Shown here: piece after piece, positions 44,288 to 54,832 of the stretch
Layout of the letters: each line of letters begins with the position of its first letter
Position numbering within the stretch: the first letter of the stretch is position 1
Virus genome (UHGV): UHGV-1497419
Source: a virus
Strand: one strand, 5' to 3'
DNA length: 64,000 bases
Program-made: the position numbers and the translations under genes
The notes under the pieces: model-generated
The model's database searches: none
What the model saw: only the letters and a program-made list of their open reading frames with translations
Told to the model about the DNA's origin: nothing

Positions 44288-52303
<8,016 letters not shown>

Positions 52304-52304
<1 letters not shown>

Positions 52305-52944
52305 TACATTTTTCCTGCTCTTCTAAGTTCGTTGTAAGCAATTTCCTCTTTATACGACCTCTGAATCTCAAGAAATTGTCTCAATGATAATAAATCAGAG
52401 AATGTCATAGCAAAGAGTTGGTCAAGTGTTTCTTTACACCCTTCCATACCATAAATAGCAAGCACAAATTTCATCTCGTCTGCTTCTTCATAGGTTGCCT
52501 CTACAGCAGCATCAGTTAGTGGTGTCTGTAGAGTGTTACCCATGTTTACTGAGAAGTTAGGCTTTTGAAAATGCTTGCTTCGAAAAAACTTCCGAAGTTT
52601 GCCTCCAGCGCAAATGCTAAGTAATCAATAAACTCACCGTAGTTTGCTTGGAAGTACGTATCAATATTAAGTGGGAAGTCGTCAACAGTTGCCCCTTGAA
52701 ATAATAAGGTAGCCATCTCTTCAAGGTTAATTTCTTCAATTCTGTCAAAACAAGCTTCAACAAGTTCTTTAAATGGAACCATTGGAGCTTCTTTCTTACC
52801 CTTGTCAGTCAGACTTGATAGCATCTGTGCAAAAGTTGGAACAACAATTTTACCCAACTTCATAGACATCTTAATACCATCTCTTGCCCCAAGCAGAATG
52901 ATATTCACTTTCTTACCGTTAATTACTCTAGATTCTGTTTTCAT
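52304..52944 (-). CDS. tail assembly chaperone, predicted -1 frameshift fusion product (G-T type)
   Basis: Slippery heptamer U_UUU_UUC in the 52546-52944 frame; the -1 frame is open from there into the 52304-52543 ORF. Confidence 0.45.
52546..52944 (-). CDS. tail assembly chaperone (G-type, unshifted product)
   Basis: 132-aa ORF between tube and tape measure genes. Confidence 0.5.
   Translation of the reverse strand: MKTESRVINGKKVNIILLGARDGIKMSMKLGKIVVPTFAQMLSSLTDKGKKEAPMVPFKELVEACFDRIEEINLEEMATLLFQGATVDDFPLNIDTYFQANYGEFIDYLAFALEANFGSFFEASIFKSLTSQ
52582..52588 (-). other. programmed -1 ribosomal frameshift slippery site TTTTTTC
   Basis: X_XXY_YYZ heptamer in the zero frame of the chaperone gene, ~36 nt before its stop. 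Confidence 0.45.
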
Positions 52945-52974
52945 TGTGATTCCTTAATACTTTTAAAAGAAACA

Positions 52975-53010
52975 AAAAAGGGGAAGACCTTTTAAAGTCT
53001 CCCCCTTATA
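52975..53010 (-). terminator. putative terminator hairpin after the tail tube gene
   Basis: GGGGAAGAC / GTCTCCCC imperfect inverted repeat with an A-run on the plus strand. Confidence 0.3.
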
Positions 53011-53017
53011 GGATTTA

Positions 53018-53464
53018 TTAAACACTTGACGCTGGAATTGTAGAAGTGTAGTCTAACTTCTCACAACCAAAAATCCAAGTTTTAGAGTTCTGGTCACGAC
53101 CAAGTTCAATCTGCGGTAATTCCTGCAACCAAGCATTAATACCAGTTGCCAGAACAGAGCCTGATGGGTCGTAGATTACGAAGTTAGAAGAGATATCTTC
53201 TTCAAGTTCCATATTGTCTTGTTTAGCTTGAATTGCAGAAAGCATCTGGTTAGAGAGAGAAGTCTGCATTAACTCAATCTCAATAGTACCTGTCTTGTCT
53301 GCATTTCTTGTCAGAGCAACTTGACCACCTGCACCAACAACTGGTGTCACAAGTGGTGATGTTCTCTGTAGACGCAAGAATGAATCTGGGGCAAAGCCTT
53401 CAATGGCAATACCATTCCAGCTACATACAACGTCTTTAGGGGAATATTGCTGATACATAGCCAT
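53018..53464 (-). CDS. putative tail tube protein
   Basis: 148-aa protein between sheath and chaperone genes; positional. Confidence 0.45.
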   Translation of the reverse strand: MAMYQQYSPKDVVCSWNGIAIEGFAPDSFLRLQRTSPLVTPVVGAGGQVALTRNADKTGTIEIELMQTSLSNQMLSAIQAKQDNMELEEDISSNFVIYDPSGSVLATGINAWLQELPQIELGRDQNSKTWIFGCEKLDYTSTIPASSV

Positions 53465-53479
53465 TCCAATTTACCTCTA

Positions 53480-54832
53480 TTATTCGTAAGCCACTGTACC
53501 TTTCAAGTCAACATCCAAGATAGCCCCTGCTAAGATACCTGCGAAGGTAACATCTTTCAGGATACGAGCTTTCTTGTCTGCCAAAGCAACTTGAGAGGCT
53601 TTAGGAACATTAACTGTGTAAGATGACAGGAAGTTTCTGTTGACTGCTCTTTGTAGAGAGGTTTCAATGACTTGACGAATACGGGTAATACCAGTATCAT
53701 CATAAGTAATCTTACCACCCTTCTGGTTAATTAGCAAGTCTCTCAGAGAAGTTTTCAGGTCTGATTCTAACCAGTCAACGCCACGGACGATATCAATCCA
53801 TTCCCCACCAGAAGTAATCCCTCTACGAACCACTGGAACACCACCATCAAGGTCAATAAAGTTACAGTGACGTACATCTAAAGCAGACTTCTGAATACTT
53901 GTCAGAGGTCTCTGATTAGATGGTTGTAGAGAAGCTGCTACACCAGTTAGCTGAGCATTACCCCAAGCAATTGAACCTGCATCATATGGAGCACCATAAG
54001 CAATGTATGCCATCTCTGGATAGTCTTCTGCTGCTGCGTGATGCCACAAGCAAACTGTACGAGTGTACATATTCTTAGCAAGCTGTGCTGGAACATCATT
54101 TGCACTGGCTAATTCTGTACCTTGCAGGGCTGTTACATCGGAGTTAGCTGTAAAGAAGATTTTCTTGCGAGCCTGAATCTCAGAAGCCATTGCTAAGACA
54201 AACTGTTGAGTTCTGTCTTCTGCTGCAATGAAATACCAGTCATTAGAGTAAGCTTCGATAGCTGCCAGAGCAGTTGATGCTGTATCGGCAGTTGTACTTG
54301 CAATATACACAGTCTGTGCTGTAGTTGTTACTTTCACAAAGTCATTATCACCAGCTTTGGTAATAATCATTGTGGCAGAGCCATTGCTACCAGTTACGTT
54401 CACAGAAACCTTATCTTTGATTGTTGGGTCAGCTTCAATCTGTGTTTTAAACTGTTGCAACACGTTTTCAGCAGTGTCTTCAGCTTGTGCTGTATACTGA
54501 TATGGTTGAGAAATTCCACCGCCAGCAGCTACAGTAATTGAGTAGTCTGTACTTTCAGCAACGGCATTAGGAATTGATACAGTGTACTGCATAGCACGTC
54601 TACCAATATAAAGCTGAGTTACTTTAGGAGTCTGACTCCAAAGTTGTTTAGCAGCCTTATATGCAGCAGTATTCTCATCGAAATCTTCAGCAACTTCAGT
54701 TAAGGAAGTGTAACCACGTACTCTTTCTTCAAAATTATCTGTTGAAGCTAAGAATAGTGGCAAACCAAAACCTTCTCTTGTAGTTCCTGCGGTGTTCAAT
54801 GTAATATCTACATTAACAATTGGATTCCACAT
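53480..54832 (-). CDS. putative tail sheath protein
   Basis: 450-aa protein immediately upstream of the tube gene; positional. Confidence 0.45.
   Translation of the reverse strand: MWNPIVNVDITLNTAGTTREGFGLPLFLASTDNFEERVRGYTSLTEVAEDFDENTAAYKAAKQLWSQTPKVTQLYIGRRAMQYTVSIPNAVAESTDYSITVAAGGGISQPYQYTAQAEDTAENVLQQFKTQIEADPTIKDKVSVNVTGSNGSATMIITKAGDNDFVKVTTTAQTVYIASTTADTASTALAAIEAYSNDWYFIAAEDRTQQFVLAMASEIQARKKIFFTANSDVTALQGTELASANDVPAQLAKNMYTRTVCLWHHAAAEDYPEMAYIAYGAPYDAGSIAWGNAQLTGVAASLQPSNQRPLTSIQKSALDVRHCNFIDLDGGVPVVRRGITSGGEWIDIVRGVDWLESDLKTSLRDLLINQKGGKITYDDTGITRIRQVIETSLQRAVNRNFLSSYTVNVPKASQVALADKKARILKDVTFAGILAGAILDVDLKGTVAYE

Follow-up and report, generated by a model that had tools for sequence, protein, structure and literature searches.

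The window analysed here, the whole stretch of 64,000 nucleotides from the virus genome UHGV-1497419, comes from a Felixounavirus, i.e., a Felix O1-like myophage, since the 295 phage records matched by positions 52000-53500 (megablast) belonged nearly all to Felixounavirus or to other Ounavirinae. The top match was Escherichia phage radambza, with 99.7% identity. The tail genes of interest are encoded on the minus strand in the order sheath, tube, 132-aa chaperone, 79-aa ORF in the -1 frame, and tape measure:

53480..54832, minus strand: tail sheath gene, 450 aa (DUF3383; phrog_205 tail sheath, E=1.2e-123; 'tail sheath' in RefSeq VpaE1)
53018..53464, minus strand: putative tail tube gene, 148 aa, upstream neighbour of the chaperone gene (Pfam KPP10_Orf10; phrog_280)
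52546..52944, minus strand: G-like tail assembly chaperone ORF, 132 aa, zero frame (PF21822; phrog_1613, E=2.6e-48)
52304..52543, minus strand: T-like ORF counted from its ATG, 79 aa (phrog_4963 'tail assembly chaperone', E=2.8e-55)
50076..52304, minus strand: tail tape measure gene, 742 aa (Pfam TMP_3, E=2e-17; phrog_4036)

The Pfam match of the 132-aa ORF already settles, at the level of sequence, its identity as a chaperone. Residues 9-124 align to positions 1-124 of the 127 positions of the Phage_TAC_15 model (PF21822) with an E-value of 2.8e-19 and 70.3 bits, above the gathering threshold (cut-off 22). The ORF starts at ATG 52944 and ends at the stop TAA 52548-52546. The T part had no match in the Pfam search, and a PDB sequence search with the fusion protein retrieved no relative. 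Given that the chaperone falls in Phage_TAC_15 and that the T part is without a Pfam match, the pair has no detectable membership in the lambda G or T families. We would assign the product of 53018..53464 to the tail tube from its place after the sheath gene and from the annotation of its relatives.

The start codon of the tape measure gene shares bases with the stop codon of T/GT (TAATG, window 52302-52306, minus strand), and an AGGA is found about 9 nt upstream of the tape measure start at this overlap. The TAATG stop is reached only by ribosomes that have shifted frame or have initiated at T. As only that minority terminates there, any translational coupling to the tape measure gene would involve the minority. 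Between the tube gene and the chaperone gene lies a strong hairpin resembling an intrinsic terminator (52978-53007, minus strand), with a 13-bp stem AAGGGGGAGAC...GTCTTCCCCTT followed by TTTTTGTTT; the record of phage Michonne has a 'terminator' annotated at the matching position. This hairpin may attenuate transcription, leaving sheath and tube in excess over chaperone and tape measure. The window contains no tRNA genes that might affect Phe decoding.

A slippery heptamer in the overlap of the two frames

Positions 52590-52581 of the minus strand read AG TTTTTT CG, and the zero frame of the chaperone around them is AAC TTC GGA AGT TTT TTC GAA. This places T_TTT_TTC in the zero-frame X_XXY_YYZ phase, in agreement with the preliminary description of this DNA. 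The features of the site are:

52582..52588, minus strand: slippery heptamer T_TTT_TTC (X_XXY_YYZ), read from the sequence in the zero-frame phase AGT TTT TTC
52304..52582, minus strand: part of the predicted GT fusion read in the -1 frame, 92 codons and a stop (from the -1 frame translation; C52582 is read twice)

The fuller minus-strand sequence is GAG GCA AAC TTC GGA AGT TTT TTC GAA GCA AGC ATT TTC AAA AGC CTA ACT TCT CAG TAA AC ATG GGT. At the site, the zero frame translates as ...EANFGSFFEASIFKSLTSQ and the -1 frame as ...KLRKFFRSKHFQKPNFSVNMGNTLQ...AGKM. Reading in the latter meets no stop between 52624 and the TAA at 52306-52304, and the 79-aa ORF (ATG 52543) lies within it, which bears out the earlier claim that this frame is open from the heptamer through the ORF. 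The G ORF and the -1 frame overlap by 79 nt (26 codons), the heptamer being 11 codons ahead of the zero-frame G stop, and no other in-frame slippery heptamer was found within this overlap. The first codon after a -1 slip is CGA (52582-52580), and the frame then runs for the 92 codons to its stop. The predicted GT, complement(join(52304..52582,52582..52944)), would consist of 121 aa, 13 aa (RSKHFQKPNFSVN) and the 79 aa of the T-like ORF, i.e., 213 aa (121 + 92), close to the 'roughly 210 aa' first estimated. Its junction would be ...EANFGSFF-RSKHFQKPNFSVNMGNT... (GSFF-RSKHFQ), in a region that takes in ...ANFGSFFRSKHF...; the junction initially proposed, GSFF-FRSKHF, had one Phe too many.

To estimate what chance would give, we counted the in-frame X_XXY_YYZ heptamers in all ORFs of at least 100 aa in the window. 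There were 73 in 20,375 codons, i.e., 0.0036 per codon, from which about 0.09 are expected in a 26-codon overlap; the heptamer is therefore only suggestive when taken from one sequence alone. A -1 frame open for at least 60 codons followed just one of the 73, the T_TTT_TTC site (92 codons, with 35 for the runner-up).

We then compared 57 related loci, taken from phage entries in GenBank and from IMG/VR. Of these, 55 kept the heptamer in the same phase together with the -1 extension, with G identities as low as 26% and GC contents between 0.40 and 0.65. In each of the 39 loci of Ounavirinae type that were analysed first (the window itself, Felixounavirus, Suspvirus, Mooglevirus, Kolesnikvirus, Yersinia phage P778 and unclassified contigs), TTTTTTC stood in the zero frame inside the overlap and the -1 frame was open to the T-like domain. 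The same heptamer and phase, with an open -1 frame encoding a T-like domain, were found in all 16 more distant IMG/VR loci (L041-L056), which have 26-50% identity to the chaperone and several of which have 57-65% GC. The chaperones of the GC-rich relatives that keep the heptamer are only 26-31% identical to that of the window. Fusions of 210-217 aa aligned end to end across eight lineages.

The codon preceding the TTT TTC of the heptamer was AGT (Ser), TCT (Ser) or GAT (Asp), always with T in the last position. In the GC-rich group, T occupies 17% of third positions and TTT accounts for 37% of Phe codons; NNT-TTT-TTC is nevertheless retained. The retention of NNT-TTT-TTC while the preceding codon varies reflects selection on the nucleotide heptamer, and not on the peptide. 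The two exceptions among the 57 loci are single records. In Escherichia phage CL1 (OK040806, positions 657-663) the slippery run is T7 instead of T6, and its record consequently gives a single 213-aa CDS, 'tape measure chaperone', whose fused product is identical to the GT predicted here. In the UNVERIFIED record of Salmonella phage GE_vB_B3 (MG969406) the run is T5. Both are probably homopolymer sequencing errors; CL1 could alternatively be a genuine GT-only mutant.

The -1 frameshifts of G/GT-type tail assembly chaperones were reportedly treated as a class by Xu, Hendrix and Duda in 2004. The locus has the traits of this class: two ORFs between the tube gene and the tape measure gene, the second in the -1 frame and overlapping the 3' end of G, a slippery sequence in the zero frame inside the overlap, conservation of this sequence despite protein divergence, and a downstream ORF without start signals of its own, though an ATG is present in the window. 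Gene families and gene order fit the G/GT arrangement just upstream of a tape measure gene that had been proposed, and this arrangement is conserved in relatives. The site also backs the assignments made in the tail module (tube, chaperone, tape measure).

Sequences flanking the heptamer

When six divergent lineages were aligned by codon, nucleotide identity peaked at the heptamer and the next 23 nt (0.94 vs 0.60 overall). In Erwinia phages the sole stretch detectable by blastn was a 41-nt island at 52599-52559. Two flanking elements are considered here:

52559..52581, minus strand: 23-nt tract directly 3' of the heptamer, GAAGCAAGCATTTTCAAAAGCCT, in the identity peak and in the blastn island
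52602..52606, minus strand: GGAGG, Shine-Dalgarno-like, 13 nt 5' of the heptamer, candidate 5' stimulator

The 23-nt tract is almost invariant in Ounavirinae, whose genera have chaperones only ~40% identical, and its conservation does not extend to L041-L056. No structure was predicted for it (52581-52559). It codes in both frames, for FEASIFK in the zero frame and for RSKHFQKP in the -1 frame. This double use of the bases is the simplest answer for its invariance and, since it can account for it alone, the tract is no independent proof of an RNA signal. One could imagine that the tract modulates the shift by its sequence, with no structure involved, whether via the mRNA channel, via rRNA or via the nascent SFF/RSKHF peptide, and also that T_TTT_TTC is invariant in all Phage_TAC_15 chaperones, even in phages with 65% GC. 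We regard this combination as unlikely.

A search for a downstream stimulatory stem-loop had been suggested. For the window and five relatives we folded stretches of 42, 50, 52 and 112 nt past the site; we also computed RNAalifold consensus structures on eight lineages, and scanned positions 52250-53050 with Rfam. None of these revealed a 3' stem-loop or pseudoknot of the dnaX/IS type at stimulatory spacing (~5-9 nt after the heptamer). Folding of the 50 nt past the site gave -3.2 kcal/mol (z=+0.94), and across folds the minimum free energies ranged from -3.2 to -3.4 kcal/mol, at z values of about +0.9 to +1.0. The downstream RNAalifold consensus of the eight lineages reached -1.6 kcal/mol with no covariation, and the Rfam scan gave only sub-threshold chance matches. 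With no downstream stem-loop, a low shift rate is expected from the heptamer alone.

Some structures were seen elsewhere. A hairpin CUCUACAG...CUGUAGAG in the T region (~52490-52545, minus strand) begins ~37 nt 3' of the heptamer and is in the range of -20 kcal/mol (z=-1.6). SUSP1 and Mooglevirus have another inner stem at this place (CCCCAU/AUGGGG). We rejected it as a classical stimulator because it lies too far downstream and is missing from the RNAalifold consensus. Unlike the AT-rich Ounavirinae, the GC-rich IMG/VR loci L047-L056 (GC 0.57-0.65) have hairpins of -16 to -30 kcal/mol located 2-5 nt after TTTTTTC. Dinucleotide shuffles fold just as stably (z -0.3 to -1.6), and for this reason we do not claim these hairpins as stimulators. 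A long-range pairing of AGCAAGCA with UGCUUGCU ~100 nt downstream was also discarded, its partner not being conserved, by eye, in distant lineages.

On the 5' side, GAGG occurs at the same spacing as in the window in 10 of 13 lineage representatives and is absent from the Erwinia, Yersinia and L036 lineages. For internal Shine-Dalgarno-like sequences, a spacing of 9-14 nt is reported to stimulate -1 shifts (PMC5009743), and the upstream GGAGG may likewise help the frameshift. It is a candidate only, because it is missing in these three lineages and because its bases also encode a conserved Leu-Glu-Ala, which confounds its conservation with that of the Glu-Ala codons.

Probable ribosomal frameshifting and its alternatives

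We interpret T_TTT_TTC as the place where, in a Felix O1-like myophage, ribosomes undergo programmed -1 frameshifting within the tail assembly chaperone pair, the equivalent of G/GT, and give this reading a probability of about 90%. Judging from the comparison of sequences, ribosomes almost certainly make a longer version of the chaperone at this slippery site. Most ribosomes would end at TAA 52548-52546 with the 132-aa chaperone, and a small fraction would slip with tRNA-Phe in both the P site (UUU) and the A site (UUC). The two tRNAs would re-pair one base back on U_UUU_UUC, and the -1 frame would then be read as CGA AGC AAG... to TAA 52306-52304, giving the 213-aa GT. If lambda G/GT and P2 E/E+E' are a guide, the N-terminal domain common to both products would coat the tape measure protein, whereas the rare C-terminal T domain would, from what is known in lambda, recruit the tube protein. 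With a T domain that is rare and recruits the tube protein, the slip rate would set the G:GT ratio needed for tail assembly, i.e., many G and few GT.

We infer that the slippage is ribosomal, with a shift rate of probably ~0.1% to a few per cent; such a low rate would yield many G and few GT molecules. In Escherichia coli reporters, UUUUUUC shifted at 0.12% without stimulator, at 0.89% with the IS911 stimulators and at 7.6% with the IS3 pseudoknot (PMC4066793, supplement). Among A-site tetramers in E. coli, U_UU.C ranks second in proneness to shift, and shifting favours UUN codons and heptamers made only of pyrimidines (PMC4066793). The papers searched contained no report in which the fusion had been detected by experiment in a Felix O1-like phage.

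Phage P2 E/E+E' resembles the window in its contractile tail, in the location of the chaperone pair between the major tail and tape measure genes, and in its T6-based heptamer T_TTT_TTN. The P2 pair uses a -1 shift at TTTTTTG with no downstream hairpin (PMC3091744), which the missing downstream hairpin of the window matches. According to the citation in PMC3091744, this frameshift was established by Christie et al. 2002. The P2 heptamer ends with G whereas that of the window ends with C, and the proteins differ in length (91 aa for E and 142 aa for E+E', 132 and 213 aa in the window), the likeness being one of arrangement and heptamer. Lambda G/GT is made by a -1 frameshift at G_GGA_AAG in a ratio of ~30:1; neither protein is found in virions, G binds the tape measure protein and T binds the major tail protein (PMC5009743). 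Lambda shares with the window the position of the genes and the combination, predicted here, of an abundant short chaperone with a rare C-terminally extended one, but it is a siphovirus with a different heptamer. The E. coli dnaX signal includes a Shine-Dalgarno-like sequence on the 5' side, a heptamer and a 3' stem-loop. The candidate GGAGG 13 nt 5' of the heptamer may correspond to the 5' element of dnaX; the window differs from dnaX in having no 3' stem-loop and a U-based heptamer instead of A_AAA_AAG.

The nearest annotated equivalents are in the Citrobacter phages Michonne, Moogle and Mijalis (Mooglevirus, Ounavirinae), where a tape-measure chaperone frameshift is assigned to the orthologous gene pair, at 79% nucleotide identity. 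Michonne AKU44019 is a joined CDS with 'ribosomal slippage (47149)', and position 47149 falls inside the same heptamer in an identical context, AGTTTTTTCGA. The genome announcements of Michonne and Moogle describe them as Felix O1-like phages with a tape measure chaperone made by a -1 translational frameshift. The Mooglevirus annotation concerns another genus than that of the window and was made by inspecting the sequence, not by experiment. The phrase 'translational frameshift' does not occur in the 2010 Felix O1 genome paper.

The same protein (S-F-F-R...) would result if RNA polymerase added one U on the T6 run, so that a minority of mRNAs encoded GT in one frame with no shift by the ribosome. 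The deposited CL1 record, with its T7, encodes exactly the fused protein. A scan for terminators also found a weak hairpin, CUGGAG-GCAAA-CUUCGG, directly before the T6 run (52592-52608, minus strand), and hairpins beside slippery runs can stimulate polymerase slippage (PMC5009743). Yet this hairpin has only six pairs, two of them G-U, arises from Glu...Phe codons (GAG/TTC) and is not conserved (alifold consensus of -1.8 kcal/mol), and we rejected it, with its T-run, as a terminator-like stimulator of transcriptional slippage. Productive slippage by bacterial RNA polymerase typically takes place on runs of 9 or more. The T6 run is shorter than these, and in all loci it is capped by an invariant C and not lengthened. 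The heptamer also stands in the exact X_XXY_YYZ phase and is a motif on which ribosomal shifts have been measured in E. coli. Slippage by the polymerase is thus a very improbable origin of GT.

The other alternative has no fusion: the 79-aa ORF would be translated alone from ATG 52543, e.g., by termination-reinitiation, and the heptamer would be incidental. An in-frame ATG does lie 2 nt past the G stop (TAA AC ATG) in the window and in most Felixounavirus genomes, and two separate CDS are annotated in all five Felixounavirus records checked (VpaE1, radambza, SUT_S720, BPS17L1 and pSJ21, RefSeq included) and in Mooglevirus Sf18. However, there is no Shine-Dalgarno sequence in the 20 nt upstream of ATG 52543. 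The T part has no ATG at its start in five divergent loci (phiEa21-4, P778 and L036-L038), where the T domain is still conserved, and relatives of phiEa21-4 lack it as well. One IMG/VR Felixounavirus contig (L011, ~1902) has ATA where the T ATG would be, with Ile for Met in the -1 frame, and is a natural variant without an independent start for the T part. The -1 frame peptide upstream of the T ATG, R-S/G/R-K-H/L-F-Q-K-P, is conserved too, which is a weaker argument because the same bases are constrained in the zero frame. Independent initiation explains neither the relatives devoid of a start codon nor a heptamer conserved down to 26% protein identity and in GC-rich genomes, and we give very little credit to a locus without fusion. 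From these comparisons, the T ORF would not be an independent gene. Independent initiation at the ATG of the window is still formally conceivable, and low-level reinitiation there may go along with the frameshifting.

The idea that a T-rich heptamer and an overlapping ORF came together by chance and serve no function can be dismissed in spite of the ~0.09 heptamers expected in a 26-codon overlap of this AT-rich genome, because the site is invariant in 55 of 57 very divergent loci and the exceptions are variants in run length (T7 and T5).

Programmed frameshifting at T_TTT_TTC has already been described in Felix O1-like phages, and the site in the window is a re-discovery of a known feature, since the joined CDS of Michonne and the Michonne and Moogle papers describe it. 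It brings no new biology: the mechanism, the role in tail assembly and the presence in Felix O1-like phages were all described before. Its value is for annotation. Most Felixounavirus records have no joined CDS, and the 213-aa product is omitted in all five that we checked; in the window, complement(join(52304..52582,52582..52944)) is the feature to annotate. The T6 homopolymer is, in addition, a spot where sequencing miscalls make false fused or broken genes, as the records of CL1 and GE_vB_B3 probably illustrate.
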